Shown here in pieces: positions 9,168 to 62,239 of a stretch of DNA of 64,000 bases; the stretch's first letter is position 1, and each line of letters starts with the position of its first letter. A model generated the notes under the pieces. That model saw only the letters and a list, made by a program, of their open reading frames with translations, was not told the DNA's origin and made no database searches. The stretch lies in the NCBI GenBank assembly GCA_018263585.1, contig JAANWZ010000130.1:14062-78061 (forward strand), given 5' to 3'. The position numbers were made by a program, and so were the translations under genes. Origin of the DNA: Calditrichota bacterium. GTDB lineage: Bacteria; Electryoneota; Electryoneia; Electryoneales; Electryoneaceae.

Positions 9168-9309
9168 GTCATTCTGACGCCCGAAGGGCGGAAGAAGGTC
9201 CGAGTACGAAACCGGTGGTTACTGTCTGGATCACCCTTGCTGGAACTGGACCTTCCCTTCACTGCGTTCAGGATGAACTTCACGCCGCTGAGGCGGCGTT
9301 CAGAATGAC
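9168..9309. repeat. MITE/REP-like composite palindromic element, copy A
   Basis: Termini GTCATTCTGAC...GTTCAGAATGAC. Internal GAAGAAGGTCC / GGACCTTCCCTTCACTGCGTTCAGGA inverted pair. Confidence 0.8.
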
Positions 9310-9375
9310 GAAACGCCAACTGGATCGGAACTGGCAACAGTGGACCGGATCACATGAAACGACAGGTGACCGACC

Positions 9376-9529
9376 GTCATCCTGAAGCCGCGGGCGGCGT
9401 CAGTCTGCCCCACGCGACTGAAGGAGGTCCGAGTACGACGTCGGAGAGGCATGCATTTACAACCGTTTGTCTACCTGGACCTTCTTCACTACGCCCGATA
9501 AACTGAAATCGGGCTGCGTTCAGAATGAC
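9376..9529. repeat. MITE/REP-like element, copy B (tandem with A)
   Basis: GTCATCCTGAAGCC...GCGTTCAGAATGAC. Internal AAGGAGGTCC / GGACCTTCTTCACT. Confidence 0.8.
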
Positions 9530-9582
9530 GCAGAATCAGCTCTCGTTCCATGTGGTTTGTTCCGTTCATCAGGGAGACCACA

Positions 9583-11061
9583 ATGTCCTGGTGGTTAACC
9601 GCCATCGTGTTCATCCCGACCATCGGCGTGCTCGTGCTCCTGTTCGCGCCGCCGGCGCGGGAGAAGTTCATCCGCTGGTGGTCGTTCGCGGTGATGACGG
9701 TCGGCTTTCTTGTCTCGCTGCCGTTGTTCTGGTTGTTCGACGCGAGCACGGCGGCGTTTCAATTCATCGACAAGGCGCCGTGGATCCGTTCGCTCGGGAT
9801 CGACTACCACCTCGGCGTGGACGGGATCAGCCTGCTGCTCGTGCTGCTCACAACCTTCCTCGGCCCGATCGTCGTGCTCGGCAGCGGCAGCGTGACCAGG
9901 CACCTCAAGGGATACTTCATCAGCCTGCTCATCCTGCAGACCGGGATGCTCGGCGCGTTTGTCGCGCTCGACCTGTTCCTCTTCTACGTATTCTGGGAAG
10001 TGATGCTGATCCCGATGTACTTCATCATCGGGATCTGGGGCGGAGTCGCGCGCATCTACGCCGCGGTCAAGTTCTTCATCTACACGATGATCGGCTCATT
10101 GTTGATGCTGATCGGGATTCTCTGGATCTACTTCAACACGACCGTGCCGGGGATCGGCCACACGTTCGACTACACGCTGCTGGTGCAGCACGCGAACTTC
10201 CCGGTACAGGCGCAGATGTGGCTGTTCGCCGCGTTCGCGCTCGCGTTCGCGATCAAGGTGCCGATGTTCCCGTTCCATACGTGGCTCCCGGACGCGCACG
10301 TCGAGGCGCCGACCGCTGGCTCGGTGATCCTCGCCGGCGTGCTGCTGAAACTCGGCACGTACGGGTTCATCCGGTTCGCGATGCCGCTGTTCCCCGATGC
10401 GGTCGTCAGCTTCCGCCCGCTGATGCTCGCGCTCGCGGTGATCGGGATCATCTACGGCGCGATCGTCTCGATCGCGCAGAAGGACATGAAGAAACTGGTC
10501 GCGTACAGCTCGGTGAGCCACCTCGGGTTCGTGATGCTCGGGCTGTTCGCGCTCAACACGCAAGCGGTGTCCGGCGCGCTGATCCAGATGGTCAACCACG
10601 GGCTCTCGACCGGCGCCTTGTTCCTGCTCGTCGGCGTCGTCTACGACCGGCGGCACACGCGCCTGATCGCCGATTACGGCGGCATCGCCCGGTTCATGCC
10701 GTGGTATGCGGTCGTGTTCACAGCGGTCGCGTTATCGAGCATCGGCCTGCCCGGGCTGAACGGGTTCATCGGCGAATTCCTCGTGCTCGTCGGGACCTAC
10801 CAGGCGCACCCGGTGTGGGCGATCTTCGCCGCGACCGGCGTGATCCTCGCCGCGATCTACCTGCTCTGGATGATCCGGCGCGTCTTCTTCGGCGAGTTGA
10901 CGCACGATGAGAACAAGTCGCTGACCGACCTGAACGCGCGCGAGTGGGCGTCGCTGCTGCCGCTGCTCGTGTTCATCGTCTGGATCGGCGTGCATCCGAA
11001 CACGTTCCTGTCCAAGTTCACCGTCTCGATCCAGCATTTCCTGGCGCAGACGGTTCAGTAG
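9583..11061 (+). CDS. nuoM: NADH-quinone oxidoreductase subunit M (antiporter-like)
   Basis: ND4-family sequence. Start chosen at MSWWLTAIVF with an AGGGAG RBS 6 nt upstream. The ORF track's 9550 start runs into a repeat element. Confidence 0.85.
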   Translation: MSWWLTAIVFIPTIGVLVLLFAPPAREKFIRWWSFAVMTVGFLVSLPLFWLFDASTAAFQFIDKAPWIRSLGIDYHLGVDGISLLLVLLTTFLGPIVVLGSGSVTRHLKGYFISLLILQTGMLGAFVALDLFLFYVFWEVMLIPMYFIIGIWGGVARIYAAVKFFIYTMIGSLLMLIGILWIYFNTTVPGIGHTFDYTLLVQHANFPVQAQMWLFAAFALAFAIKVPMFPFHTWLPDAHVEAPTAGSVILAGVLLKLGTYGFIRFAMPLFPDAVVSFRPLMLALAVIGIIYGAIVSIAQKDMKKLVAYSSVSHLGFVMLGLFALNTQAVSGALIQMVNHGLSTGALFLLVGVVYDRRHTRLIADYGGIARFMPWYAVVFTAVALSSIGLPGLNGFIGEFLVLVGTYQAHPVWAIFAATGVILAAIYLLWMIRRVFFGELTHDENKSLTDLNAREWASLLPLLVFIVWIGVHPNTFLSKFTVSIQHFLAQTVQ

Positions 11062-11095
11062 TGGTTCGATTCGACTACTATGGGCGTAATTGATC

Positions 11096-11248
11096 GTCAT
11101 TCTGAAGCCGTGGCCGGTGTCCGTATACCGCCAACGGCTGAAGAAGGTCCAGATGCTGTACAGGTCAGCTATTCATAGAGACCGTCGGCGAACCGGGACC
11201 TTCTTCACTTCGTCCAGCAAACTAACGCTGGTCTTCGTTCAGAATGAC
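11096..11248. repeat. MITE/REP-like element, copy C
   Basis: GTCATTCTGAAGCC...CGTTCAGAATGAC. GAAGAAGGTCCA / GGACCTTCTTCACT. Confidence 0.8.
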
Positions 11249-11305
11249 GAATCATCTCCCGCCAGACCGTGTGGATTCGCCCATTAGGCCCTGAGGAGCC
11301 GACTC

Positions 11306-12778
11306 ATGTTCGACAGTCTGATCGCTGATATGCATGTGAGCCGCCTGATCCCGGAGATATTCGTGATCGGGCTCGCGCTCGTCGCCATCCTCGTCGATGT
11401 GGTCCTCCCGCGCGGCCGGAGCACTCGCGGCGTGCAGATCACCGTGCTGATCGGCCTGTTCGCCGTGATCGCCGCCACCGTGCTCGGCAAGGAAAACACC
11501 GGCGAAGCGTTCGGCGGGATGGTGGTCGTGGACGGGTTCACCTTCTTCTTCCGGCTCCTGCTTGCGATCATCACGTTCCTCGTCGTGCTCGTGAGTGAAC
11601 ATTACATCGAGCGGCTCAACATCCGGATCGCGGAATACTACCTGCTGTTGCTGTTCAGCCTGTTCGGGATGCTGCTGATGGCGATGGCGCAGGATCTGCT
11701 CATCGTGTTTCTCGGGATCGAGACGATGTCTGTGTCGCTGTACGCGCTCGTCGGACTCTCGCGGCAGAAGCACACGTCGAACGAGGGCGCGATCAAGTAC
11801 TTCCTGCTCGGCGCGTTCACGACCGCGATTTTCGTCTATGGGATCGCACTCATGTTCGGCGTCGTCGGCTCGACGAACATCAACGACATCGTGACCTTCC
11901 TCAGCGGACTCGGCGACTCGATGCCGCTGCTCGCGTGGGCGGGCGCCGGGTTGATCCTGATCGGGTTCGGGTTCAAAGCGGCGCTTGTCCCGTTCCACTG
12001 GTGGAGCCCGGACGCGTACGAGGGCGCGCCGACCACGATCACCGCGTTCATGTCCACCGCGCCGAAAGCCGCAGCGTTCGCCGCGTTTCTCCGTGTCTTC
12101 TACATCGCGTTCGGCGAGATGTGGGGTGAGTGGACGGTCGTGCTCTGGTGGATCGCGGTGCTCACGATGACGTTCGGCAACCTGCTCGCGCTCCGCCAGG
12201 ACAGCGTGAAACGAATGCTTGCGTTCTCGAGCATCACGCACGCCGGTTATCTCGTGATCGCGCTGCTCACGTTCGACCGGATCGGGGCGGCGGCGATGCT
12301 CTTCTACCTCGTCGTCTATGCGCTGATGAACCTCGGTGCGTTCCTCATCGCGATCGCGGTCAACCGTGACGAAAGCGAGGAGAAGGGCTACTGGTTCGAC
12401 GACTACAAGGGGCTGGTGTTCCGCAAACCCGCGCTCGCGCTCGCGATGCTCGTGTTCATGCTCGCGCTCGCGGGGATTCCGCCGACCGCCGGCTTCTTCG
12501 GGAAATACTACATATTCGCCTCGGCCGTGAACGCCGGCTTCGTCGGGCTCGCGGTGATCGGCGTGCTCAACAGCGCGGTGAGCGTGTACTACTACCTGCG
12601 GCTCGTCGTTTACATGTTCCTCCGCGACCGCGAGGCGCGCGAGCGCGAGGGGCCGCTTTGGATCACGGACGAGATCACGAACGTCGTCTTCCTCTGCCTC
12701 GTGCTCGTCCTGCTCGTCGGCCTGTTCCCGGACGCGCTGCTCACGTTCGCGACGAACTCGGTGAAGATGCTGCTCTGA
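11306..12778 (+). CDS. nuoN: NADH-quinone oxidoreductase subunit N (antiporter-like)
   Basis: 490 aa ND2-family membrane protein. GAGGAG RBS. Confidence 0.88.
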   Translation: MFDSLIADMHVSRLIPEIFVIGLALVAILVDVVLPRGRSTRGVQITVLIGLFAVIAATVLGKENTGEAFGGMVVVDGFTFFFRLLLAIITFLVVLVSEHYIERLNIRIAEYYLLLLFSLFGMLLMAMAQDLLIVFLGIETMSVSLYALVGLSRQKHTSNEGAIKYFLLGAFTTAIFVYGIALMFGVVGSTNINDIVTFLSGLGDSMPLLAWAGAGLILIGFGFKAALVPFHWWSPDAYEGAPTTITAFMSTAPKAAAFAAFLRVFYIAFGEMWGEWTVVLWWIAVLTMTFGNLLALRQDSVKRMLAFSSITHAGYLVIALLTFDRIGAAAMLFYLVVYALMNLGAFLIAIAVNRDESEEKGYWFDDYKGLVFRKPALALAMLVFMLALAGIPPTAGFFGKYYIFASAVNAGFVGLAVIGVLNSAVSVYYYLRLVVYMFLRDREAREREGPLWITDEITNVVFLCLVLVLLVGLFPDALLTFATNSVKMLL

Positions 12779-12920
12779 GTGAATGCCCGCGGGGACGGGC
12801 GCCGGCCCGTCACCGCGGTTGATCCAACGGTGCTGAACTGCGCCGGTGTCGAACCGCGGTTGCGTCCCCCTTCTCGCTCCGGCTTCCGCGAGACGGGAGC
12901 GCCCGAGGTCCTCCTGCCTG

Positions 12921-13223
12921 TTACGCCAGCTTCTGCTTCACCGATTCGACTTTCCGCTCCATCGACTGCGCTGCGTCGCGGCGGTCATCGATCTTGATCA
13001 CAGTGCTGATCCGCGGCGCGCCCGCTTCGACGAGCGCCACGTGCATCTTCTTCGCCACGTCGAACAGGTCGTCGATCTCCCCTTCGACGGTGGTGAACAT
13101 CGGGCCGAGCTCGTACTTGACACGCTTGTCCCGGCGCAGCACATCGACCGCTTTCGCGACATGTTCGCTCAGGCTCGTGTTGTCCCTGCCGGAAGCAGCG
13201 ACGCTGATCGCGAGGATCGCCAT
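12921..13223 (-). CDS. MTH1187/YkoF-family (DUF77) small protein
   Basis: 100 aa (MAILAISVAASGRDNTSLSEHVAKAVDVL...TVEGEIDDLFDVAKKMH) matches the thiamine-binding YkoF/MTH1187 fold family. Convergent with nuoN. Confidence 0.6.
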   Translation of the reverse strand: MAILAISVAASGRDNTSLSEHVAKAVDVLRRDKRVKYELGPMFTTVEGEIDDLFDVAKKMHVALVEAGAPRISTVIKIDDRRDAAQSMERKVESVKQKLA

Positions 13224-13458
13224 GTGAATGCCTCCGTCTGTTCGCCGACGCTCGCTCCTACTCGAAAGTGAGAGTGTCCCCGGGCGGCTCGCAACGCCCG
13301 GCGCGCGCACTCCGTCGAACCGGGAGGAAACAAGCCGGGCGTTGGCGCGTCCAACAACGGGCACAGGCGCGGGAGACTCGACCGACCGCCGGCTTGCGTC
13401 GAAACGGCCCGGGCCGTAGCTTCACATTCTCGTGCAACAGAGAACCAGGGACAGAGCG

Positions 13459-13674
13459 ATGAAGAAGGACATCCATCCGGACTATCATTACGTGCAGGTG
13501 ACGTGCGCCTGCGGCGAGCAGTGGCATACACGGAGCACGCAGCCGGGGGAGATCAAGGTCGAGATCTGCTCCAACTGCCACCCGTTCTTCACGGGCAAAC
13601 AGAAACTCGTTGACACGGCCGGCCGTGTTGACAAATTCTACCGGAAGTACGGGATAAAGGCGCAGGAAGGATGA
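13459..13674 (+). CDS. rpmE: 50S ribosomal protein L31
   Basis: [10 protein letters not shown]...[13 protein letters not shown] is the canonical L31 sequence, with the Zn-ribbon CxxC..CxxC. Confidence 0.92.
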
Positions 13675-14684
13675 GTCCGTCCCGGCGGCGGAACGGTCGG
13701 GAACAGCGCAAGCCGATGGTCGGCGGGCAGGCGGTGCTCGAGGGCGTGATGATGCGCTCGCCGTGGCGCGTGGCGGTCGCGGTGCGCAGTCCGGACGGCG
13801 CCGTGATCACCCGCGGCCGGCCGTTCGTCAGCCTCACGAAACGCCGCAAGTTGTTCGGGCTGCCGGTTGTCCGCGGCGCGATCGGGCTGTTCGAGGCGCT
13901 GCGGATCGGGATGGACGCGCTCTCATGGTCGGCGCGGATCGCAGATCCGGAGAGCGAGGAAAAGCGGCGCGGAAAGCCGGTGCCGTGGGATACGGTCCTC
14001 TCGATCACGTTCGCGCTCGTGCTCGCGGTCGGCCTGTTCATGCTCGTGCCCTACCTGGCGGCATCCGCGACCCCTGCCGAACAGAACCCGTTCCTGTTTC
14101 ACCTGATCGCCGGCGGGCTGCGTGTCACGCTGCTCATCCTCTACATGGTCGCGATCTCGCTGCTGCCCGACATCACGCGCGTGTTCCAGTATCACGGCGC
14201 CGAGCACAAGAGCATCTTCGCCTGGGAGCGCGACCTCGAGCTCGTCAACGGCAACGCGTGCGCGATGAGCCGGTTCCACCCGCGCTGCGGCACGAGTTTC
14301 CTCCTGCTCGCGGCGGTGTTGACAATGATCGGGTTCGCCTTCTTTGACGCGGCGTGGGCGGTGTGGATCGGCGACTACGCGAACGTGTTCCAGCGCCTGC
14401 TCGTTCACCTGCCCGCGATCCCGCTGATCGCCGGACTCGCGTACGAAGTGCTGAGGATCGTCGAAAGGCACGCGGACGAGCCGCTCTGGCAACCGCTGGT
14501 GAAGCCCGGGTTCTCGCTGCAGCGGATCACGACCCGCGAACCGGACGCCGCTCAAGTCGATGTCGCGCTCCATTCCCTCCGCGAAGCGCTGGTGAAGGAC
14601 GAGGGGGCGCACGAGGGCCCGGCCCGGTGCGAACTCGGCGCCGAGGACAGACCCGGCGAGCTCCGCCAGCCCGCGCACGCGTGA
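13671..14684 (+). CDS. DUF1385 (YqhQ-like) membrane protein
   Basis: ATGA overlap with the rpmE stop. QYHGAEHK motif. Multiple TM helices. Confidence 0.6.
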
Positions 14685-14744
14685 CTAAGTCCTCCAGCAA
14701 TTCCTGAAATATCCAGAGTTTCTGGCCCATTCCCGGAGTGATAC

Positions 14745-15269: not shown

Positions 15270-15458
15270 GCGGCGCCCGTTCTCGCCGGCGGCTCATGCT
15301 CTCGCCTCGACTACCCGAGCGGCGAGAATTCGGCGTTCCGAACTCCGTGAAACCCGAGCACTTTCGACGTATATTTATCGCTTGCGAGCATCCGGTTGTG
15401 CCGTTCGCTCAGCCACTTGCATGGGCCGGAACTTTGATCGCATCCGGACGGCCGAGCC

Positions 15459-15626
15459 GTCATTCTGAAGCCGGCTTCACGCGTCTGTCTGCGTGAAGGC
15501 GGGTGGAGAAGGTCCACGTTATCCAAGGGTCATTTCACGAGTTTCATGGTATCCTCCACCCTTGTCGAAGCTGGACCTTCTTCCCTTCGCCCGACAAACG
15601 GACGTCGGGCTTCGGTCAGAATGACG
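15459..15626. repeat. MITE/REP-like element, copy D
   Basis: GTCATTCTGAAGCC...GGTCAGAATGAC. Reverse complement of copy F. Confidence 0.8.
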
Positions 15627-15720
15627 CCCTTTCCACCCGCTATTTTGCTCCCGGCTGAGCCAAAGGGATGACCGGATGCGAGCAGGCGTCGAAGCGAGTG
15701 CAGCGTGTACGGAAGGGACG

Positions 15721-16230: not shown

Positions 16231-16292
16231 GCGCCGCCAAGGTGGGAACGCGGGCCGCGGGGACGGCTCGCCAGTCATTCGGAGGAGCAAGT

Positions 16293-16772: not shown

Positions 16773-16850
16773 CGCGAACGCTCGTATTGCGAGCGATGGG
16801 CGGGCACTTCCGGGTGACCGCCGTATCTCGTGCTTCTACCCGGGGACATG

Positions 16851-17522: not shown

Positions 17523-17580
17523 CAGCAGTTGAGCTCTCGTCGGTGGATATGATCCGACTCGTGTACTCGGCGAACCGCGA

Positions 17581-19252: not shown

Positions 19253-19514
19253 GGGATACTCTGCGAGAGTAACTGATTCAAGCAACGATCACGCGGGTCG
19301 TACACGCGGCACTCGATGAACGCGCCCGATCAGGGCCCATGCAGCAACTGGCGGCGGATGTCACGGCTGAGCCGGCGTGTTGTCTCCGCGGGCAAATCGT
19401 GCCACATGCCGTGCACCATAGGCGTTGACTTTTCCGGGCCCTCATTCACACGGACGACTTCCACCTTCGCGCGGGGCATATCATTGAACAGCGGATCGTT
19501 CGACGCAATCGTGA

Positions 19515-21078: not shown

Positions 21079-21121
21079 TGTAGCGCGAACGGCGGGGGAG
21101 AGGGAGTGGGCCGGCGCGGAA

Positions 21122-28651: not shown

Positions 28652-28976
28652 CGTGCGTTCTCCCTGATTCGGGGACAGTCCGGGCGTCCGTGACCGCTCC
28701 GCCGGAGTCCCCCCGCGGTCGATCCAACATCGCAATATAGGGCGTGGCCCGGAGCGAAAACAGGTTTCCCCGTTCGCTCCCGCGGGCGCGCTGGTCCCTT
28801 TGCGCGCCGGGGCCTCCGGGGACGCTTGCTTGCAAGCGTCCCCTGCCTCTGCCACGTCTCCTTTGCGCGAGCGGGACCGGCGAATGTATGCTCTACACCG
28901 TTGTTCGTGAACGCTGCCCGTGGGAACGCCCGCTCCGGCGTTCCGTCTCTTTCACCGCAACCACCGGCGAGCGACG
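28652..28976. promoter_or_regulatory. Divergent promoter region between the GT-deacetylase-flippase operon (-) and the ABC exporter pair (+), containing the 26-bp palindrome
   Basis: 325-bp spacer between divergent start codons. Perfect palindrome at 28818-28843. Confidence 0.4.
28818..28843. repeat. 26-bp perfect palindrome GGGGACGCTTGC-TT-GCAAGCGTCCCC
   Basis: Seen directly. Lies in the divergent GT-operon / ABC-exporter intergenic region. Confidence 0.85.
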
Positions 28977-35355: not shown

Positions 35356-35381
35356 GGGGACGCTTGCTGGCAAGCGTCCCC
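35356..35381. repeat. 26-bp perfect palindrome GGGGACGCTTGC-TG-GCAAGCGTCCCC
   Basis: Seen directly. In the non-coding region downstream of the putative anti-sigma gene. Confidence 0.85.
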
Positions 35382-35527
35382 GGTGTCGGGGCCTGGTGGC
35401 CCGCGAGCTTGCCGCGGGACAGGAGTCTGAGCTACATTCCACACCTGCAGATCCACCCGTCCCCGGGTGGATCGCTTATCTTGAACGGTTCGCAATTACA
35501 GGGCCGGTTGCGCATTCGGCGCAGGGT

Positions 35528-35680
35528 GTCATCCTGAACAAGCGCGGCGTCCGTTTGCCGCGCGCTGTGAAGGATCTACGCGGTGCACCACCAGGATGTC
35601 ATTTGACACGCACCCGCGCGGTTCTTGCTGGCAGATCCTTCACCCCCGCACAATAGAGACGTGCGGGGGTTCAGGATGAC
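35528..35680. repeat. MITE/REP-like element, variant copy E
   Basis: GTCATCCTGAACAAGC...GTTCAGGATGAC termini. Divergent interior carrying the GAAGGATC / GATCCTTC pair. Confidence 0.7.
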
Positions 35681-35780
35681 ACTGAGGCGGCGCTAAAACG
35701 GACCGGTGGCTGGGGTCCAAGATGACTCGACCTTGCATTTGCGCGGAAGCCTATTCAAAGAGAAACGCAGGAGTTTTCAG

Positions 35781-39034: not shown

Positions 39035-39171
39035 GATGGTTTCCCCGGGCGGCGTCCCGGTGCTGTGTCGTCGCGCCGGGCGAGGACGACTCACTTCCCT
39101 CGTGCGTGCACTTGCGAGCATTCGGTTATCCCTTTGGCTCAGCCGGGAGCAATATCGCGGGTGGCAAGGGT

Positions 39172-39363
39172 GTCATTCTGACCGAAGCCCGACGTCTTTT
39201 TGTCGGGCGAAGGGAAGAAGGTGCAGGTCTGACACGGGTGGAGGATACCATGAAACTCGTGAAATAACCCTTGGATAAGCTGGACCTTCTTTATCCGCGT
39301 TCACGCAAACAGACGCGTGAGGAGGGGACGCTTGCTGGCAAGCGTCCCCACAGCCAGAATGAC
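39172..39363. repeat. MITE/REP-like element, copy F (inverse orientation of D; carries a nested 26-bp palindrome)
   Basis: About 85% identical to the reverse complement of D. GGGGACGCTTGCTGGCAAGCGTCCCC is inserted near one end. Confidence 0.8.
39324..39349. repeat. 26-bp perfect palindrome GGGGACGCTTGC-TG-GCAAGCGTCCCC (nested in element F)
   Basis: Seen directly. Confidence 0.85.
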
Positions 39364-39473
39364 GCCTCTGCCACCCGGGTGTGCTTCAGAGTCCGGTCCA
39401 TGCACGTGGCTGAGCGAACGGTATAACCCGTTGCCGGCAGGCGTCCCTTTTTCGAGGAAGACTCAATCCACCG

Positions 39474-40637
39474 ATGGCGATAAAGACGACAGAAAAGCGG
39501 GTCGGCGTGCTGATGAGCGGCGGGGTGGACAGCTCCGTCGCGGCGGCGCTGCTGAAGCGGAAGGGATATCACGTTGTCGGCGTCACGCTCCAGCTCTGGG
39601 ATTATGAAACCAACGGACGGCGTCCCCCGGGCGAGCGCGGCTGCTGCGACATCTCGCACCAGATGGACGCCCGCTTCGTCTGCCACCATCTCGGCGTCGA
39701 ACACGTCGTCCTCGACCTGCGTGACGCCTTCCGCCGCGCGGTGGTCGGGCCCTACGAAAACGCCTACCTTTCCGGGAGAACGCCGAATCCGTGCATCGCC
39801 TGTAACACGCACATCAAGTGGGCGGAGGTGATCAGGCGCGCGCCGGTGTTCGGGCTCGATTTCATCGCGACCGGCCACTACGCGCGCGTGGTTCGCGGCC
39901 GGGACGGCGTCCGGCTCGAGAAGGGCGTCGATCGCGCGAAGGACCAGAGCTACGCGCTGTGGCAGATCCCGCGGCACGTGCTCGCGCGCACGATCTTCCC
40001 GCTCGGCACGTGGACGAAGCGTTCGATACGGGAAGAGGCGCGTCAGCTCGGCCTGCGCACGGCCGACAAGCCCGAGAGCCAGGAGGTCTGCTTCATCGAC
40101 GGCCGCTACGACGAGCACCTGCGCGAGGAGTACGCGGACCGGGTTTCGCGGATCGGCGCGGGCGAGATCGTGGACACCGCGGGGCGCACGCTCGGCGGGC
40201 ACAGCGGCTTTTTCTCGTTTACGATCGGCCAGCGGAAAGGGCTCGACATTTCCGACGGCCGGGGCCCGTATTACGTGACCGAGCTCGACGCGGCGCGTAA
40301 CCGGGTCGTCGTCGGCGACCGCCGTTCGCTCGCGCGCACAGGCCTCGTCGCGGTCGAGCCGAACTGGGTGTCGTTCGACCCGCCGGAGCGGCCGGAGCGG
40401 TGCGCGGTGAAGGTGCGCTACAATGACCCGGCCGGCGCGCCCGCGACCGTGCATCCGCCTGAAGATGGACGCGTGCTGATTCGGTTCGACAACCCGGTCG
40501 ATGCGGTCACCCCCGGCCAGTCCGCGGTCTGGTATCGCGGAAACGCCGTCTGGGGCGGCGGAATCATCAGCCGCGCGTTGAAGGACGGTGACGCGGCGGC
40601 AGACAGTCACAGGATGAACCTCGAGGCAGACTGGTGA
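39474..40637 (+). CDS. mnmA: tRNA-specific 2-thiouridylase
   Basis: PP-loop SGGVDSSVAA. Catalytic Cys motifs. Full-length MnmA. Confidence 0.88.
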   Translation: MAIKTTEKRVGVLMSGGVDSSVAAALLKRKGYHVVGVTLQLWDYETNGRRPPGERGCCDISHQMDARFVCHHLGVEHVVLDLRDAFRRAVVGPYENAYLSGRTPNPCIACNTHIKWAEVIRRAPVFGLDFIATGHYARVVRGRDGVRLEKGVDRAKDQSYALWQIPRHVLARTIFPLGTWTKRSIREEARQLGLRTADKPESQEVCFIDGRYDEHLREEYADRVSRIGAGEIVDTAGRTLGGHSGFFSFTIGQRKGLDISDGRGPYYVTELDAARNRVVVGDRRSLARTGLVAVEPNWVSFDPPERPERCAVKVRYNDPAGAPATVHPPEDGRVLIRFDNPVDAVTPGQSAVWYRGNAVWGGGIISRALKDGDAAADSHRMNLEADW

Positions 40638-40788
40638 AAAAGGCGTGATCGTCCGTCATGCTGAACGAAGTGAAGCAGGTCCAGGTTCGCAAAGGGTCGG
40701 TCTCATAAGCCAACCTGTTGATAACTCGGATCTTTCCTTCACTGCGTTCAGGACATGCTTCCGCCGCCTGCGGCGGCGTCAGAATGAC
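40638..40788. repeat. MITE/REP-like element, copy G
   Basis: GGCGTGATC..GTCATGCTGAACGAAGTGAAGCAGGTCCAGGTT...GGATCTTTCCTTCACTGCGTTCAGGACATG...GTCAGAATGAC. Confidence 0.85.
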
Positions 40789-40856
40789 ATGCCACCGGCG
40801 GTCGGCGGTTCATCAAGCTGGAAATACTTCATCAACAGTCTCGATGGGGAGCGCTG

Positions 40857-43308: not shown

Positions 43309-43908
43309 ATGAGACGACTTGGAACTGCAATTGTGCTGGCGGTGCTGCTCTCCGTCGCGACGTTCGACGGCGCGTACGGCCAGTCTCCCTACCGTGATAC
43401 GAAACCGCCGACGACCACCGAAACCCTGCGCCAGCCCGTGATCGATGACGGTGGTCAGGGGTTCTCCGGCCTGCTCGATCTGTCGCGCCTCTCGATGGAC
43501 CACCAGTTCGGAATGGGCTACATGAGCAGCGGCGGGCGCGGGTACACGCAGGGCTACTATCTGAACACGCTCACCTACCGGTTCAACGCGCCGGTGCTGC
43601 TGCGTCTGCGCACGGGAGTGACGAACAACCCGTTCGCGCAGAGCGGCTCGATGACCCGGCCCGGGCAGTCCGCGATGAGCGCGTTTTTCAACAACGCCGA
43701 GTTCTTCGGCGGCGCCGACCTGCTCTGGAAACCGAGCGAGAACACGCGGCTGATGATTTCGGTCGAGCGCACGCCGCCGGGTATGTTCGGCGGCGGGAGG
43801 TACGTGAACCCGTACGGCTCGCCGGGCTTCTGGAATCGGGGCGGCTTCGGAGCCTATCACCCGGCGTACGGCTTCGACGACCCGGGCTTCGACCCGCACC
43901 GGAATTAG
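43309..43908 (+). CDS. Secreted Gly-rich hypothetical protein
   Basis: GGAGGA RBS. Signal peptide. Good GC3. No family recognised. Confidence 0.45.
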   Translation: MRRLGTAIVLAVLLSVATFDGAYGQSPYRDTKPPTTTETLRQPVIDDGGQGFSGLLDLSRLSMDHQFGMGYMSSGGRGYTQGYYLNTLTYRFNAPVLLRLRTGVTNNPFAQSGSMTRPGQSAMSAFFNNAEFFGGADLLWKPSENTRLMISVERTPPGMFGGGRYVNPYGSPGFWNRGGFGAYHPAYGFDDPGFDPHRN

Positions 43909-43943
43909 CGGACCGAATCACATGAAACGAGGTTTGATATTGC

Positions 43944-44120
43944 GTCATTCTGAACGCAGCCCGATGTCAGTTTATCGGGCGCAGTGAAGTTTATCCTGAA
44001 CGAAGTGAAGGGAAGGTCCAGGTAGATAAACTGTTGTAAATGCATATATTACCGATGTCATACTCGGACCTTTCCTTCACTGCCTTCAGGACATGCTTCA
44101 GCCGCGTGCGGCAAACTGAC
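43944..44120. repeat. MITE/REP-like element, modular copy H
   Basis: GTCATTCTGAACGCAGCCCGAT..ATCGGGCGCAGTGAAG module, then the CTGAACGAAGTGAAGGGAAGGTCCAGGT...GGACCTTTCCTTCACTGCCTTCAGGACATG module. Confidence 0.75.
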
Positions 44121-44239
44121 GCCGGCCGCGGCTTCAGGGTGACCGTGAGTCACCCGTTGTTCCATGTGATCCGGTCCACGAGCGGCGTGTGAGGACCGGC
44201 GGTTCGATCTGACGAGATGAGGGGGAGGTCCGGAACAGC

Positions 44240-55818: not shown

Positions 55819-55918
55819 CGCTGCGCGGGCTGATCTGCCTGAGACGGGACGCACGTTCGCTTGTCTTCACGGGACTGTGCGCGTACATTCCGATTCGCTT
55901 GAAACAGCAGATTCCGCC

Positions 55919-58267
55919 ATGCCTATCCGCCACCTGACCATCTCACTGATCATCGCTTCCGTCGCGGTCGTCCTGTTTGCGCCGGAGTCCTGTTTCGCCC
56001 AGCAGGCCGCCCCCCGCTCCGGGATCAAGGTGATGGGTGTGCGCGTGGAGGGGGAGCGATTGGCCGACCCCGGCCTGATCCTCGCCAACTCCGGGCTCGT
56101 CGTCGGCAAGGAGATCACCGGGGAGGACATCCAGCGGGCGATCCGGCGCATCTGGCGGCTCGGGTTGTTCAAGGATGTGGAGATTCTGCTCGAGCGGGAG
56201 GTGCCCGGCGGCGGTTTCTTCGTGATCAAAGTTGAGGAGTTCCCCCGCATCGCGCAAATCGAGATCAGCGGGAACCGGAAGATCAAGGACGATGAGGCAC
56301 TCGAGCTGCTCGACCTGTACCGCGGCCAGGTGATGCGGCCCGCGAAGCTGCAGGCCGCGCGGAGAAACCTGCTCGACGAATACAAGGAGAAGGGCTACCT
56401 GCTCGCCACCGTCGAGATCGAAGCGGAGGACACGGACGACCCGCTGCGCAAGAAGATCCGGTTCGTGATCGACGAAGGCCGAAAGGTACGGATCGAGGAG
56501 ATCAACTTCGTCGGTAACGAGGCGTTCGAAGACAAGACGCTGCGCAAGCAGTTCGAGGAGACGGAGCAGCGCGGCTGGTTCATTCTGAGCTGGTTCACGA
56601 CCGGTGATTTCGACCGCAGCGAATACGAAGACGATCTCGACCGGCTCGTCTCGTTCTACCGCAACCAGGGCTACCGTGACGCTGAAGTCGTGAGCGACTC
56701 GATCTCGTACACCCGCGATCTCAGTCGGATGATCCTCACAATCCGCGTTCGGGAAGGGATCCAGTACTACTTCGGCGACGTTGAGTTCGCAGGCAACAAG
56801 ATCTTCACCGAAAACCAGCTTCTCGACCGGCTCGCGTTCCGCCCGGGCGACGTGTACAGCGAGGAGAAGCTGCAGCTCACGACCGGCGAACGGCTTGGCA
56901 ACCTCTACTACGACCGCGGCTACATCTACTCGAGCATCGAGCCGCTGCTCGTTCCCGCGGCGAAGGACACGCTGGATGTCACGTTCCAGATTCACGAAGG
57001 GAACCAGTTCACCGTCCGCAAGATCCACATCCTCGGCAACACGAAGACGAAAGACAAGGTGATCCGGCGGGAGATGGTCCTGTTTCCGGGGGAGACATTC
57101 GACGTGTCGCTGCTGCGCAGGAGCGTGCGCGAGCTCACGATTCTCAACTACTTCGCGAACGTGACCCCGGACGTGCAGCCCGTGAGCGACAGCGAGGTGG
57201 ATCTCTACGTGGAAGTGGAGGAGAAACCGACGGACCAGGCGAACGTGTCCGCGGGCTACAGCGAGCGCGACGGCGTGATCGGCGCGATCGGGTTCGCGAT
57301 GCCGAATTTCCTCGGGAACGGCCAGCGGTTCAGCCTCGACTGGAACTTCGGCCGCATCTACCGCAGCTTCTCGATCAGCTTCACCGAGCCGTGGATGTTC
57401 AACACGCCGACGCTCGGCGGGATCAGCTTCTTCGACCTGCGCCGGGGCGGCTCGTTCTACGGGTTCGACGAGCACGTGTCCGGCGCGAGCTTCCGTCTCG
57501 GGCGACGGTTCCGCTGGCCGGACGACTATACCCGCGGCGACTGGATCTACCGCATCGACCGCGCCGAGTATGACAATTTCACGCGGTCGTTCCGTGAGAA
57601 CAACCCGCGCGCGCTCGAGGAAGGGCGAATCCGCTGGAGCAGCTCGCTGACCCAGATCTTCACCCGTGACAGCCGCGACAACCCGGAGTTTCCAACCCGC
57701 GGCAGCGTGTTCTCCTACTCCACCGAGCTCACCGGGCGCTTCCTCGGCGGTGACGACGAGTTCCTGAAACACAGGGTGAGCGGAGAATGGTACACTCCGC
57801 TCTACGGCAAGCTGACGCTGTATTCGCACACGCTGTTCGGCGTGCTCTACGAGCTCGGCGACGCGCGCGATGTGCCGTACATCGACTACTTCTTCATGGG
57901 CGGCAGCGGGATCAGCTTCGGCGAGTCGCTGCGCGGGTACGAGGAGGGCGATGTCGGCCCGCAGGCGGGGGGCTACCCGATCGGCGGCCAGAGCATGTTC
58001 AAGCAGACGATGGAGATCCGTCTCCCCGTGATCCCGAACCCGACCGTGTTCGTGCTCGGGTTCGCGGAAGCGGGGAACACGTGGGCCTCCCGCGGGCAGA
58101 CGAACCTCAACGACCTGCGGCGATCGGTCGGGCTCGGCGTGCGCCTCTACATGCCGTTCATCGGCCTGATCGGGCTCGACTACGGGTACGGGTTCGACTA
58201 TGTCGGCGACCAGGGACGGCGCGAGGGCCGCTGGGTCCCCCACTTCCAGTTCGGACGCACATTCTGA
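55919..58267 (+). CDS. bamA: Outer membrane protein assembly factor BamA
   Basis: Signal peptide. Five POTRA-like repeats. C-terminal beta-barrel ending ...QFGRTF. Confidence 0.85.
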   Translation: MPIRHLTISLIIASVAVVLFAPESCFAQQAAPRSGIKVMGVRVEGERLADPGLILANSGLVVGKEITGEDIQRAIRRIWRLGLFKDVEILLEREVPGGGFFVIKVEEFPRIAQIEISGNRKIKDDEALELLDLYRGQVMRPAKLQAARRNLLDEYKEKGYLLATVEIEAEDTDDPLRKKIRFVIDEGRKVRIEEINFVGNEAFEDKTLRKQFEETEQRGWFILSWFTTGDFDRSEYEDDLDRLVSFYRNQGYRDAEVVSDSISYTRDLSRMILTIRVREGIQYYFGDVEFAGNKIFTENQLLDRLAFRPGDVYSEEKLQLTTGERLGNLYYDRGYIYSSIEPLLVPAAKDTLDVTFQIHEGNQFTVRKIHILGNTKTKDKVIRREMVLFPGETFDVSLLRRSVRELTILNYFANVTPDVQPVSDSEVDLYVEVEEKPTDQANVSAGYSERDGVIGAIGFAMPNFLGNGQRFSLDWNFGRIYRSFSISFTEPWMFNTPTLGGISFFDLRRGGSFYGFDEHVSGASFRLGRRFRWPDDYTRGDWIYRIDRAEYDNFTRSFRENNPRALEEGRIRWSSSLTQIFTRDSRDNPEFPTRGSVFSYSTELTGRFLGGDDEFLKHRVSGEWYTPLYGKLTLYSHTLFGVLYELGDARDVPYIDYFFMGGSGISFGESLRGYEEGDVGPQAGGYPIGGQSMFKQTMEIRLPVIPNPTVFVLGFAEAGNTWASRGQTNLNDLRRSVGLGVRLYMPFIGLIGLDYGYGFDYVGDQGRREGRWVPHFQFGRTF

Positions 58268-58292
58268 CAGGACATTCAACACCGAGGACGTG

Positions 58293-58802
58293 ATGAGAAA
58301 GTCGATCGTACTGCTGGCGGCGCTCCTGTTCGCCGTCGCCGCAGCGCCGGCACTCGCGGAAATGAAGGTCGGCATCATCATCTCCGACCGCATCCTCAAC
58401 GAGTATCCGGAGGCGCAGGACGCGCAGAAGATCCTCGAGGAGGAGATCGCCGAGTGGCAGCGCCAGGCGAAGGAGATGGAGGAGGAGCTCACCGAGCTCG
58501 ACAAGGAACTCGCCGAAGGCAACATGTTCTACAGCGAGGAGAAGAAGGCCCAGGTGCAGGCGAAGTTCGACCGCAAGATGCTCGAGTACCGCGAGTTCCA
58601 GGCGAACATCGAGCGCCGCGCGATGCAGCGGAACCAGGAGCTGTTCGCCCCGATCAACGAGAAGATCCAGAAGGTGATCGACGAGATCGCGCAGGAGGAC
58701 GGTTACGACATCATCTTCGATGCGGTCGGCACCGCGATCGCATACGCCGACCCCGAGCTCGACATCACCGACCTCGTGCTCGAGGAGTTGAAGAAACAAT
58801 GA
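58293..58802 (+). CDS. skp: Periplasmic chaperone Skp (OmpH)
   Basis: Signal peptide. 170 aa coiled-coil Lys/Glu-rich. Downstream of bamA. Confidence 0.8.
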   Translation: MRKSIVLLAALLFAVAAAPALAEMKVGIIISDRILNEYPEAQDAQKILEEEIAEWQRQAKEMEEELTELDKELAEGNMFYSEEKKAQVQAKFDRKMLEYREFQANIERRAMQRNQELFAPINEKIQKVIDEIAQEDGYDIIFDAVGTAIAYADPELDITDLVLEELKKQ

Positions 58803-59812
58803 GCGTGACCGCGGCGGCGCTGGCGGAGTTGATCGGTGCCGAGCTCGTCGGGGACGGCTCGCTCCCGCTCGACGGCGTTGCGAAAATCGAAGACGCCGGT
58901 GAGCGCAAGGTCACGTTCATCGCCAACCGGAACTACCTCAAGTATCTGCCTGAGACCGGCGCGGGGGCGGTGATCCTCGCCTCGATCCCGGAGGGGGAGG
59001 AGGGCCGACGCAGCTACCTCGTGACAGATGATCCGTACGCCGGCTTCGTCAAGGTCCTCCGCCATTTCCACCCGGAACCCGCGAAGCCGGAGCCGGGCGT
59101 ACATCCGTCCGCGGTCGTCGCCGGCGACGCCGTGATCGCGGAGTCGGCGTCGGTCGGCCCGCTCTCCGTGGTCGAATCCGGCGCGGCGATCGGCGAGCGA
59201 ACCGTGCTGCTCGCGCACTGCTACGTCGGCCGTGACGCGAACATCGGCGCGGACTGCTTCCTCCACACCCGGGTCACCGTCCGCGAACGTTGCGAAATCG
59301 GCAGTCGCGTCGTGATCCAGGACAGCGCGGTGATCGGATCGGACGGGTTCGGCTATGCCCCGGGCGAGGAGGGGTACGCGAAGATCCCGCAGGTCGGGAA
59401 CGTCGTGCTCGAGGATGATGTCGAAATCGGCGCGAACACGACGATCGACCGTGCGACGCTCGGCTGCACGATCATCCGCCGCGGGGTCAAGCTCGACAAC
59501 CTGATCCAGATCGCGCACAACGTGGACGTCGGCGAGGACACGGTGATGGCGGCGCAGGTCGGAGTCGCCGGCTCATCGACGATCGGCCGGCGTTCGATGT
59601 TCGGCGGCCAGGTCGGCATCTCCGGCCACATCCGGCTCAGTGACGGCGTGATGATCGCCGCCCAATCCGGGGTGCACAAAGACTTCGGCCCGGACAGGAT
59701 CCTCGGCGGCTACCCGGCCGTCGAAATCCGCGAGTGGCGGAAGAACGAGGCCGCGATCCGCCAGTTGCCCGACCTGATAAAGCGCGTGAGGAAACTGGAG
59801 GGGGGGAAGTGA
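58799..59812 (+). CDS. lpxD: UDP-3-O-acylglucosamine N-acyltransferase
   Basis: ATGA overlap with skp. Left-handed beta-helix hexapeptide repeats. Confidence 0.85.
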   Translation: MSVTAAALAELIGAELVGDGSLPLDGVAKIEDAGERKVTFIANRNYLKYLPETGAGAVILASIPEGEEGRRSYLVTDDPYAGFVKVLRHFHPEPAKPEPGVHPSAVVAGDAVIAESASVGPLSVVESGAAIGERTVLLAHCYVGRDANIGADCFLHTRVTVRERCEIGSRVVIQDSAVIGSDGFGYAPGEEGYAKIPQVGNVVLEDDVEIGANTTIDRATLGCTIIRRGVKLDNLIQIAHNVDVGEDTVMAAQVGVAGSSTIGRRSMFGGQVGISGHIRLSDGVMIAAQSGVHKDFGPDRILGGYPAVEIREWRKNEAAIRQLPDLIKRVRKLEGGK

Positions 59813-59822
59813 GGATGGGACG

Positions 59823-61223
59823 TTGCTGAAGAACCAGCGCACGATCGCGCAGGAAGTCGCACTCGAAGGAATCGGCCTGCACACCGGCGTGACGACGCAG
59901 ATGACGTTCAAGCCCGCGCCGGCGGGGTCGGGGTACTGGTTCGAAAGGAGCGATCTCGACAGCGCGCCCCGGATCAAGGCGGACATCGATCATGTGATCG
60001 ACATCTCCCGCGGGACAACGATCGCCCAGGGCGACGTCAAGGTGCACACCGTCGAACACGTCCTCTCCGCGATCGCCGGACTCGGGATCGACAACTGCGT
60101 CGTCGCGCTCGACAATGTCGAACCGCCGGTGATCGACGGCAGCTCGAAACCGTTCGTCGATGCGCTGCTCAAGGGCGGAATAAAGGAGCAGGACGCGCCG
60201 AAGGAATACCTCGAGATCAACAAGACGCTGATCTACCACAACGAGGAGAAGGGGATCGACCTCGTGATCGTGCCCTCGGACGAGTTCCGGATCACGTACA
60301 TGGTCGATTACCGCAACCCGGCGCTCGGCACGCAGTACACGTCGATGTACACGCTCGAGGACGAGTACGCCAGCGAGTTCGCGGAGGCGCGCACGTTCGC
60401 CTTTCTCAGCGAGATCGAGCAGCTCAAGAAACAGGGCCTGATCAAGGGCGCGTCGCTCGACACCGGGCTCGTGATCGTCGATCGCGACCTCGACGGCACG
60501 GGGCTGAAGCGGCTGAAGGACCTGTTCGAGGTGGACCATCCGCTCAAGCTCGGCGAGAGCGGCATCCTCGACGACCGCGAGCTGCGCTTCTACAACGAAC
60601 CGGTGCGGCACAAGGTGGTGGACCTGATCGGCGACTTCGCGCTGCTCGGGATTCCGATCCGCGGGCATGTGATGGCGGCGCGCGCGGGCCACGAGGCGCA
60701 CGTGGAAATGGTCCGCAAGATGCGCAAAATCTACCAGCAGCGGAAACTGACGAAAAAGTACCAGCGCTCGACGACCACCACGTACGTGTTCGACGTGGAG
60801 GCGATCCAGCGCCTGCTCCCGCACCGGTACCCGTTCCTGCTCGTCGATCGCATCCTCGAGCTCGTGCCCGGGGAGCTGGTCTCCGGGATGAAGAACGTGA
60901 CCGTGAACGAACCGTTTTTCCAGGGCCACTTTCCCGGCCATCCGGTGATGCCGGGCGTGCTCGTCATCGAGGCAATGGGCCAGGTCGGCGGCGTGCTCCT
61001 GCTCAACGAGTCGGCGAACCCGGAGAACAGCGTCGTCTATTTCACCCGGCTCGAGAACGTGCGGTTCAAGCGGATGGTCGTCCCGGGCGACACGCTGTTC
61101 ATCCGCGTCGAGCTCGTCTACTTCCGGCGCGGGGTGTGCAAGATGCAGGGCCGGGCGTTTGTCGATGATGATCTCGCCGCGCAGGCGGAGCTGCAGGCTG
61201 TCATCCGGGAGCAGGAAACATGA
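59823..61223 (+). CDS. lpxC/fabZ: Bifunctional UDP-3-O-acyl-GlcNAc deacetylase / 3-hydroxyacyl-ACP dehydratase
   Basis: N-terminal LpxC (HTVEHVLSA, zinc ligands). C-terminal FabZ hot-dog (FFQGHFPGHPVMPGVL). TTG start. Confidence 0.85.
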   Translation: MLKNQRTIAQEVALEGIGLHTGVTTQMTFKPAPAGSGYWFERSDLDSAPRIKADIDHVIDISRGTTIAQGDVKVHTVEHVLSAIAGLGIDNCVVALDNVEPPVIDGSSKPFVDALLKGGIKEQDAPKEYLEINKTLIYHNEEKGIDLVIVPSDEFRITYMVDYRNPALGTQYTSMYTLEDEYASEFAEARTFAFLSEIEQLKKQGLIKGASLDTGLVIVDRDLDGTGLKRLKDLFEVDHPLKLGESGILDDRELRFYNEPVRHKVVDLIGDFALLGIPIRGHVMAARAGHEAHVEMVRKMRKIYQQRKLTKKYQRSTTTTYVFDVEAIQRLLPHRYPFLLVDRILELVPGELVSGMKNVTVNEPFFQGHFPGHPVMPGVLVIEAMGQVGGVLLLNESANPENSVVYFTRLENVRFKRMVVPGDTLFIRVELVYFRRGVCKMQGRAFVDDDLAAQAELQAVIREQET

Positions 61224-62020
61224 GCGTGATCGACCGGCATGCGGATGTGGATCCGGGGGCTGAGCTCGGCGACGATGTCACCGTCGGCCCGTTCGCCGTG
61301 ATCGAGGCGGGGGCGGTGCTCGGTCATGGCTGCCGTGTCGGCCCACACGCGTACGTGACGAAATGGGCGCGGCTCGGCAACGACGTCCAGGTCCACAACG
61401 GAGCGGTCGTCGGCAGCGACCCGCAGGATCTCAAGTTCGAGGGCGAGGAGACGACACTCGCGGTCGGCGACCGCACCGTGATCCGCGAGTTCGCCACGCT
61501 CAACCGCGGCACGAACGAGTCCGGCAGCAGTTCGGTCGGCGCCGACTGCCTGCTGATGGCGTACACACACGTCGCGCACGACTGCCATCTCGGCGATCAT
61601 GTGATCCTCGCGAACTCGGTGAACATGGGCGGGCACGTGTACATCGGCGACTGGGCGATCGTCGGCGGACTCGTGCCGATTCACCAGTTCGTGCACATCG
61701 GCTGCCACTGCTTCATCGGCGGCGGCTGGCGCGTGCCGCAGGATGTGCCGCCGTACATGCTCGCCGCCGGAAGCCCGCTCAGCTACCGGGGATTGAACTC
61801 CATCGGCCTCCGGCGCAGAGGGTTCTCCTCCGAGAACATCATCGCGCTGAAGCGGGCGTACAAGCTCATCTACCGCAGCAATCTCAACCTGACCCAGGCC
61901 GTTGAGCGAATTCACTCCGAGCTGGAGATGACGAGTGAAATCGGAGAATTGCTCCGCTTCATCGAACAAGATTCGAAACGCGGGATCATCGGGCGCGGCG
62001 GAGTGGAATCCGATTTCTGA
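61220..62020 (+). CDS. lpxA: Acyl-ACP--UDP-N-acetylglucosamine O-acyltransferase
   Basis: ATGA overlap. Hexapeptide repeats. C-terminal helical domain. Confidence 0.85.
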   Translation: MSVIDRHADVDPGAELGDDVTVGPFAVIEAGAVLGHGCRVGPHAYVTKWARLGNDVQVHNGAVVGSDPQDLKFEGEETTLAVGDRTVIREFATLNRGTNESGSSSVGADCLLMAYTHVAHDCHLGDHVILANSVNMGGHVYIGDWAIVGGLVPIHQFVHIGCHCFIGGGWRVPQDVPPYMLAAGSPLSYRGLNSIGLRRRGFSSENIIALKRAYKLIYRSNLNLTQAVERIHSELEMTSEIGELLRFIEQDSKRGIIGRGGVESDF

Positions 62021-62085
62021 ATCCCGGCGGATTCGACCGGCGGCTTGCCGCGGGCGACGCCGCGGATGCACATTCCGAGGACTGC

Positions 62086-62239
62086 TGGAAAAGGCGTGAT
62101 CCTTCGTCATGCTGAACGAAGTGAAGCAGGTCCAGGTTTGAAGACGGTCGTACATATGACTCAACCTGTTGATAACTCGGACCTTTCCTTCACTGCGTTC
62201 AGGACATGGTTCCGCCGCCTGCGGCGGCGTCAGAATGAC
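62086..62239. repeat. MITE/REP-like element, copy I (about 90% identical to G)
   Basis: Collinear with G apart from a diverged central ~30 bp. Confidence 0.85.

Follow-up and report, generated by a model that had tools for sequence, protein, structure and literature searches.

Repetitive extragenic palindromic (REP) sequences of bacteria have been divided into a GTAG-tagged and a CGTC-tagged superfamily (Di Nocera, De Gregorio and Rocco, 2013; PMC3733652). REPs of the latter type carry the tag CGTC, or its variants TGTC and CCTC, followed by a stem that begins with AT and a tail with the consensus CCA, and their monomers are stem-loops of 25-30 nt with a stem of 8-9 bp and a loop of 4-5 nt (PMC3733652). 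They occur mostly as inverted dimers with spacers of 20-100 bp, some of which begin and end with a stem-loop; the genes on either side are unidirectional, and no transposase gene flanked by CGTC repeats was found (PMC3733652). Such REPs have been reported from five phyla and include the dRS3 repeats of Neisseria and the RPE-4 and RPE-6 repeats of Rickettsia (PMC3733652); the canonical REPs found near TnpA-Y1 genes carry a GT[AG]G tag (Quentin et al., 2018; PMC6006769). Here we describe nine intergenic palindromic elements (A to I) and one solo element end in a 64,000-nt stretch of the Calditrichota bacterium assembly GCA_018263585.1 (contig JAANWZ010000130.1, positions 14,062 to 78,061). This whole stretch is referred to as the window, and all positions are counted from its first nucleotide. 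The elements are units of 135-355 bp that carry no gene, have been copied between unlinked spacers, and are derived insertions in comparison with sister genomes. They are quite probably non-autonomous palindromes of the REP/REPIN/BIME kind that form a lineage-specific and structurally elaborated family of the CGTC/TGTC-tagged REP superfamily.

The 10-mer GTCATYCTGA has 15 exact matches on the two strands of the window, against 0.25 ± 0.52 in dinucleotide-preserving shuffles. These matches bound nine intergenic palindromes, with one extra match at 6185 that marks the solo end; this enrichment bears out the nine palindromic copies and the single solo end that a first-pass annotation of the sequence had listed. 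The inner inverted pair described there was recovered as well, the motif GGACCTTYCYTTCACTGC (up to three mismatches allowed) having 5 matches where 0.10 are expected, namely in A, G, H (twice) and I. Self-BLAST of the window retrieves all pairwise relationships among the copies, which occur in both orientations; at unlinked loci, the members of a pair agree over 230-355 nt with a mean column identity of 83-86%. All nine copies are predicted to form long branched hairpins, with energies between -56 and -103 kcal/mol, and in the tested examples the fold stability relative to shuffled sequences amounts to z = -6.4 (D) and z = -9.9 (H), in keeping with the long hairpins that had been proposed. Element C is present intact between nuoM and nuoN in three independent Logan read assemblies (SRR10589502, SRR10589505 and SRR10589506) and therefore is not an assembly artefact, a possibility that the annotation had named as refuting the family. 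All three assemblies start exactly at GGACCTTC within element B, as is expected where a repeat breaks a de Bruijn assembly. The density of one element per 7 kb, which had been called unusually high, is ordinary when set against REP-rich genomes such as those of E. coli and Neisseria, which hold about one element per 3-8 kb.

Six copies contain a core of common predicted four-way design, and several copies are extended by outer arms into larger composite units. The individual elements are as follows:

6184-6205, plus strand: solo left end TGTCATCCTGAACAAGCCGGCG, in the 55-nt nuoI-nuoJ spacer.
9167-9310, plus strand: element A, 144 nt, in the nuoL-nuoM spacer, with a TGTC head and a CGTC tail end.
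9340-9569, plus strand: composite element B, with a four-way core of 156 nt at 9375-9530, in the nuoL-nuoM spacer.
11095-11249, plus strand: element C, 155 nt, four-way, in the nuoM-nuoN spacer.
15379-15708, plus strand: composite element D, with a four-way core of 169 nt at 15458-15626, between the DinB-like and rubrerythrin genes.
35527-35681, plus strand: element E, 155 nt, four-way, the copy nearest to the cross-phylum consensus.
39089-39443, minus strand: composite element F, the reverse complement of the D type, with a core of 194 nt at 39171-39364, between a cysteine desulfurase-like gene and mnmA.
40593-40842, plus strand: composite element G, with a core at 40654-40789 and the left head CGTCATGCTGA; about 250 nt are common to I.
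43904-44179, minus strand: composite element H, the reverse complement of the B type, with a core of 202 nt at 43943-44144.
62047-62293, plus strand: composite element I, with a core at 62105-62240, the sister of G, downstream of lpxA.

The anatomy given in the first-pass annotation was largely right, but H ends at 44144 (GGGTGACC) rather than at 44120, and the canonical left heads of G and I begin at 40654 and 62105 rather than at 40638 and 62086. Likewise, the shared termini are present at the ends listed there but had been described one base short, the full conserved end being YGTCAT...ATGACR. Among the 18 ends of the nine elements the tag reads CGTC at 11, TGTC at six and GGTC at one; the canonical ends are all of the form YGTC-AT-YCTGA, and the exception is the degenerate right end of H (GGTC-AC-CCTGA). 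By eye, about 20 of the 22 positions of the solo end agree with the left end of E.

The four-way design is common to B, C, D and E, and to F and H when these are read on the minus strand. The two heads pair into a 12-bp closing stem, which encloses a left, a central and a right hairpin. The central hairpin opens with GAAGGTCC/GGACCTTC, or in E with GAAGGATC/GATCCTTC, and both its tip and the two side hairpins are variable; the layout of E, for instance, is TGTCATCCTGAAC-hairpin-GTGAAGGATC ... GATCCTTCAC-hairpin-GTTCAGGATGACA. Element A is composed of a small left hairpin, the central GAAGGTCC/GGACCTTC hairpin, an extra degenerate right head TTCAGGATGAAC that lies inside the outer one, and a right hairpin. 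RNAalifold predicts the four-way design from the alignment of the six cores, in which 86.7% of the cells are paired; sliding the partners by 1-3 columns lowers this share to 30-43%. Both sides have changed in 15 pairs, against 7.0 ± 1.8 in shuffled alignments, none of 500 of which reaches 15, and this covariation is seen in all helices. Although the stems of the side hairpins vary from copy to copy, and within one copy from arm to arm, they remain complementary. The inner arm terminus reads GAAGGTCCA in C, D, F, G and I, GGTCCG in A, B and H, and GGATCTA in E; it resembles GGATCCA without the local stem that defines a REP tail. By inspection, YGTC also begins the loop in 10 of the 12 side hairpins of the six cores when these are read inward from the nearer end (for example CGTCAGTTT, CGTCCGTTT, CGTCAGTYT and CGTCTGTYT), so that single-stranded loops repeat the terminal tag motif; a loop YGTC was not seen in the acidobacterial side hairpins inspected. 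A hammerhead or other ribozyme, which the combination CUGA...GAAG might call to mind, was rejected by inspection, as the CUGANGA/GAAA core is missing and the junction is four-way.

In these features the window elements resemble CGTC REPs. They carry the CGTC or TGTC tag followed by AT (YGTC-AT-YCTGA), a tail-like GG(A)TCC(A) motif closes their first arm, and nine of nine copies are inverted head pairs whose spacers hold side and central hairpins. Like CGTC REPs, they lie between unidirectional genes without an associated transposase, and they coexist with GTAG REPs in the same genome. Unlike CGTC REPs, most of their heads have no local partner. The compact local stem-loop after the tag is absent in A-D and F-I, where the partner of the head is the opposite end, at a distance of 130-190 nt, and large variable hairpins replace the loop; in E alone a local pairing, ATCCT...AGGAT, survives with an interruption. 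The CCA tail is matched only approximately (GGTCCA/GGTCCG), extra palindromic layers give units of 230-355 bp, and the host, a member of the FCB group (Ca. Electryoneota), belongs to none of the five phyla of the 2013 list. The tag, the AT start, the structured inverted dimers, the genomic context and the lack of a transposase are all as in CGTC REPs and the local stem-loop is not, a combination that argues for a new, elaborated family within the superfamily. On the sequence criteria, the elements would fit the CGTC/TGTC-tagged REPs as a family of their own, being neither textbook monomers nor a categorically new kind of repeat. The supplement of the 2013 study lists peptides encoded by intragenic REPs, among them VILDGRNIEF (Kosmotoga olearia, CGTC-2) and VIPGLDPGIH (Starkeya novella, CGTC-3) (PMC3733652), and the openings VILD and VIPG are consistent with heads that read GTC ATC CTG and GTC ATC CCG.

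Other described repeats share part of this architecture. As in the neisserial intergenic mosaic elements (NIMEs), repeat units bounded by dRS3, short intergenic modules are assembled into mosaics bounded by CGTC-type inverted repeats (PMC3733652), but NIMEs are arrays of RS units whereas the window elements are nested palindromes with a four-way fold, and we found no evidence that the latter are used as phage attachment sites. The GTAG REPs and REPINs that depend on REP-associated tyrosine transposases (RAYT, TnpA-REP, HUH Y1) are likewise intergenic, high-copy, inverted doublets of tagged hairpins without target duplication, and a single-stranded DNA intermediate may be presumed for both; tag and stems differ, however, the window tag being YGTC and not GTAG. 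The BIMEs of E. coli and the Correia, ERIC and BOX elements are modular palindromic intergenic repeats; transcribed together with operons, they can change the stability or processing of the mRNA. Correia elements are marked by TA duplications and by inverted repeats like those of insertion sequences (IS), and BIMEs are built from GTAG-type REPs. The window elements are modular, mosaic and palindromic in the same manner but have no sequence relationship to any of these four. The first-pass reading of the copies as non-coding, non-autonomous, modular intergenic palindromes is in this sense supported, and REP, BIME, Correia and ERIC repeats are fair comparisons.

The size of 135-190 bp originally assigned to the elements falls short of the repeated units, which measure 230-355 bp in three pairs of copies. 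Self-alignment of the window shows that B and H share a unit spanning 9340-9569 and 43904-44179, D and F one spanning 15379-15708 and 39089-39443, and G and I one spanning 40593-40842 and 62047-62293. The outer arms of B, GGACCGGATCACATGAAACGA and CTCGTTCCATGTGGTTTGTTCC, are inverted and common to H; those of D, about 80 nt long and common to F, are inverted repeats of one another, and D therefore folds as a 330-nt palindrome. The ends of the outer arms differ between the subfamilies, and the conserved head sits inside them. Within the units, small hairpin modules and extra layers come and go. As had been noticed at the outset, H combines the CCCGAT..ATCGGG hairpin of B with a G/I-type CTGAACGAAGTGAAGG layer; it corresponds to B plus a symmetric inner layer of about 23 nt per arm, which is itself a diverged head unit (GTCCTGAAGGCAGTGAAGG...). 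Similarly, F corresponds to D plus a 26-nt perfect palindrome, GGGGACGCTTGCWWGCAAGCGTCCCC, at 39324-39349. This palindrome has three copies in the window, two of which stand alone (28818-28843 and 35356-35381) while the third is the one inside F; since F has it and the sister copy D does not, it acts like a small hairpin module that moves on its own. In G, the left outer arm (40593-40637) overlaps the last ~15 codons and the stop codon of the mnmA open reading frame (ORF; 39474-40637). Since the same arm is purely intergenic in the sister copy I, the insertion of G appears to have given MnmA a new C-terminal tail.

The genes that flank the elements are co-directional housekeeping genes (nuoL/nuoM, nuoM/nuoN, DinB-like/rubrerythrin, cysteine desulfurase-like/mnmA, mnmA/panB, and the region downstream of lpxA); the nuo genes were identified by synteny. 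The copies show no preference for one orientation or strand, B, C and D pointing one way and F and H the other. A Pfam scan of ~40 ORFs of the window detected no transposase, integrase or HUH domain and no RAYT gene, as the first reading of the sequence had held for transposase and RAYT genes. The product of the gene between B and C, NuoM, matches at 100% identity a protein from a 'MAG: Calditrichaeota bacterium'; the next relatives are at most 82% identical, among them that of Ca. Electryonea clarkiae (FCB group, Ca. Electryoneota). Five relatives (L122, L123, L143, L144 and L145) with ~79-82% NuoM identity and synteny around the nuo operon were compared with the window. The nuoM-nuoN gap is 244 nt in the window (11062-11305) and 12-18 nt in these five relatives, and no paired heads of the YGTCATYCTGA type are present in their syntenic 21-kb loci, which makes the elements derived insertions in this lineage. 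Two subfamily-specific patterns had 0 matches in JGI metagenome contigs, which is consistent with a lineage-restricted subfamily. Taken with the lack of paired ends in the relatives, this upholds the notion of lineage specificity at the level of the subfamilies. The GC content of the window is 62-69% (65% in the comparison with the relatives), against 41-58% in the syntenic loci of the five relatives, so that a large GC shift within the lineage coincides with the repeat expansion.

Beyond the subfamilies, the first-pass view of an uncharacterised stand-alone family did not survive a wider scan, as the head, the GAAGGAYC motif and the inverted-dimer, four-way layout recur in many phyla. We scanned GTDB, with one genome per species in a 596-Gb collection, for the pattern GTCATYCTGA-N120-150-TCAGRATGAC and obtained at least 118 genome loci; by our own estimate ~60-70 chance matches are expected in a collection of this size. 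An inner GAAGGAYC-type motif is present on at least one arm in 107 of the 118 listed loci and on both arms in 71, with a chance rate of 0.017 per arm, and the dimer matches are therefore not due to chance. Record titles among the matches listed name Acidobacteriota, Verrucomicrobiota, Bacteroidota, Chloroflexota, Planctomycetota, Nitrospirota, Patescibacteria, Elusimicrobiota, Bacillota, Actinomycetota, Campylobacterota, Myxococcota, Thermodesulfobacteriota and Alphaproteobacteria. The commonest form among them is YT-GTCATCCTGAGCGAAGCGAAGGATC...GATCCTTCGCTTCGCTCAGGATGAC-AR, and at position -1, 254 ends taken from other genomes have T in 72% of cases and C in 20%. Four Acidobacteriota loci (L052, L032, L012 and L008) repeat the layout seen in the window, in which a closing stem encloses a central hairpin and two variable side hairpins. 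Three sphingomonad loci (L074, L016 and L022) read CGTC-ATCCTGAA-loop-TTCAGGAT-CCA and, by inspection, appear to possess the compact local stem-loop of CGTC REPs. Several loci hold nested '>>> <<<' arrays of heads. Long nested or tandem arrays with a period of ~23-80 nt were seen in L036 (Pedobacter frigidisoli; 29 half-sites within 2.7 kb), L090, L111 and L078, which suggests repeated layer-by-layer growth of palindromes. Of 2.9 million IMG/VR viral contigs, 19 match the dimer pattern. Related tailed-phage contigs, which encode a portal protein (L125 and L140), a major head protein (L125) and a minor tail protein (L141), carry canonical TGTCATYCTGAG palindromes and nested '>>> <<<' head arrays between their genes, and phages may thus be hosts, and possibly vectors, of the superfamily.

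An all-against-all BLASTP comparison of the ORFs from the 118 loci, and of ORFs within 300 nt of the elements in 137 loci, revealed no recurrent neighbouring gene family across the 118-142 loci listed; only generic families recurred (ABC transporters, ECF sigma factors, histidine kinases and aminotransferases). Rfam in gathering mode gave no match in the window and only tRNA and 6S RNA in 18 loci from other phyla, and in E-value mode positions 9100-9600 yielded sub-threshold hits only, the best being Bacillaceae-1 with 24 bits against a cut-off of 35. Literature searches with sequence strings and repeat-encoded peptides returned no match, and the RepRanger paper (PMC12306157) contains nothing specific to these elements. 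Palindromic flanks beyond the head were considered as a common feature of the superfamily and rejected: the palindrome extends at least 4 nt past the head in 6.8% of elements, compared with 0.7% in the control, an enrichment that still concerns a minority.

The label of miniature inverted-repeat transposable elements (MITEs) that the copies were first given would make them deletion derivatives of an IS, moved by cut-and-paste through a DDE transposase that recognises the terminal inverted repeats. Terminal inverted repeats, lengths of 135-355 bp, intergenic positions, both orientations and a solo end would all accord with such an origin. The fixed-length target-site duplication of a MITE was not seen, however: no direct repeats flank the window copies, at either the core ends or the composite ends. 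The 117 superfamily elements show no consistent abutting direct repeat either; 75% lack one altogether, and abutting repeats of at least 3 nt occur in 7.7%, compared with 2.1% in the control. Moreover, no transposase was found among the window ORFs scanned, none recurs next to the elements in the 118-142 loci listed, and no IS was seen whose ends match; the outer arms, with which the copied units end, differ between subfamilies and have the conserved head internal to them; and the head is common across phyla, unlike the inverted repeats of an IS, which are specific to it. We accordingly regard a classical MITE origin as improbable; strictly speaking, the elements are not MITEs. Slightly less improbable, but still unlikely, is that the elements are functional structured RNAs, operon-internal processing or stability elements kept by selection for the four-way fold. 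The copies do lie between co-directional genes, several of them in the nuo operon, and so are probably transcribed, and very stable folds with covariation in all helices would be expected of such RNAs. Covariation is expected of any maintained DNA palindrome too, however, and with respect to transcription the elements point either way (B versus H, D versus F). The plus and minus strands fold about equally, the plus strand being more stable in seven of nine copies by only 1-5 kcal/mol, the relatives run the same operons without the elements, and no Rfam family corresponds to them in any of the searches above.

Two further explanations seem far less probable than either of these. That the elements are intrinsic transcription terminators or attenuators sharing sequence by chance is hardly credible: GC-rich hairpins downstream of stop codons are indeed present, but no T-tract follows the stems, terminator scans found 1 and 6 sites where 4.2 and 5.6 are expected, with one marginal site in an element, and elements stand between genes (nuoL, nuoM and nuoN) for an obligately co-expressed complex. 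The least probable of all is that they are integron-like or other site-specific recombination sites. The window elements resemble folded attC-like sites in being imperfect palindromes, 60-200 nt long, whose single strands fold and whose structure is better conserved than their sequence, but the flanks here are core housekeeping genes in conserved synteny instead of cassettes, and this gene context effectively refutes the idea. In addition, the orientation is mixed, no integrase was found among the window ORFs scanned, and GTTRRRY/RYYYAAC core sites were not found by inspection.

If the elements are, as we favour, an elaborated family of CGTC/TGTC-tagged REPs, their core would fold, as single-stranded DNA or RNA, into the four-way junction, and palindromic layers and hairpin modules added inside or outside this core would build the 230-355 bp mosaic units that constitute the copied entity. 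The units would spread in the form of folded single strands of DNA, which an enzyme acting in trans from another place in the genome would cut and join at the YGTC tag. By analogy with the RAYT/GTAG REP paradigm (PMC6006769), this enzyme might be an HUH-type or other single-strand nuclease. Insertion would leave no target duplication and would tend to occur in or beside existing palindromes, and a preference for such targets (hairpin loops or palindrome centres) would explain the nesting. Template switching within palindromes might generate the nesting instead, and would also yield apparent compensatory changes without selection. Their position within operons such as nuoL-M-N makes co-transcription of the elements probable; the transcripts would then contain structures of -60 to -100 kcal/mol, which probably influence mRNA decay or processing as a side effect, and we found no evidence that an effect at the RNA level is why the elements exist.

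Several points weigh against this picture. We know of no enzyme that mobilises CGTC REPs, and none was identified among ~40 ORFs of the window or in the literature. Sister copies are only 83-86% identical and hence provide no evidence of current mobility. As most copies lack the strict stem-loop of a REP monomer, kinship with CGTC REPs rests on the 11-nt head, the GAAGG(A)TCC motif and the architecture, and convergence in place of kinship keeps a residual probability. The equal stability of the folds on both strands lends no support to a role at the RNA level, and quasipalindrome correction by template switching can yield covariation without selection, so that the covariation is no proof of a functional structure. 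Finally, the copies were counted within the 64-kb window and short read contigs only.

A bolder proposal is that the YGTCATYCTGA palindromes of the window, of more than 12 phyla and of tailed phages represent one pan-bacterial mobile system, in which folded single-stranded DNA would be inserted at hairpins without target duplication by an enzyme class not yet linked to REPs. Insertion into or beside hairpins would explain the '>>> <<<' arrays, the symmetric layers and the occasional palindromic flanks. We consider this doubtful; if it were true, a burst specific to this lineage and missing from sister genomes would offer a clean comparison by which to identify the enzyme.

Whichever mechanism applies, the elements explain the inflated intergenic spacers of the window, its spurious small ORFs, the breaks in short-read contigs and the altered 3' end of mnmA. 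Under the favoured assignment to the CGTC/TGTC-tagged REPs, they would represent a fresh expansion of such repeats in a phylum without an earlier report, an expansion that sister genomes do not have at the corresponding loci. The scan points to a superfamily that extends well beyond the five phyla of the 2013 list and into phage genomes. What mobilises CGTC-type REPs, and how broad the superfamily apparently is, are the points of remaining interest, and the window offers hints at both; comparison of a complete genome with the element-free relatives might make the question of the mobilising enzyme testable.

The window also harbours a second, unrelated repeat family of GTAG-tagged REPs, GTAGCCCGGGTTCGCYGAACCCGGG, with 3 matches against 0 expected:

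1680-1704, plus strand: GTAG REP.
3183-3207, plus strand: GTAG REP.
3239-3263, minus strand: GTAG REP.

The TAG of the tag provides the stop codons of nuoE and of nuoF, and the two copies at 3183-3263 form an inverted, REPIN-like doublet in the nuoF-nuoG spacer. The 9-mer GTAGCCCGG is present in the loci of four of the five relatives (L122, L123, L143 and L145), and the GTAG family may therefore predate the burst of CGTC-type elements. In the nuoH-nuoI spacer, an AT-rich stretch of 222 bp (5385-5606) is bounded by 29-nt inverted repeats, GACCACGGATAAAACGGATGGAACGGATA and TATCCGTGTTTTCCGTATCATCCGTGGTC, which consist of ACGGAT repeats; this spacer measures 113-153 nt in two relatives, and the AT-rich stretch may be another inserted element or a regulatory region.

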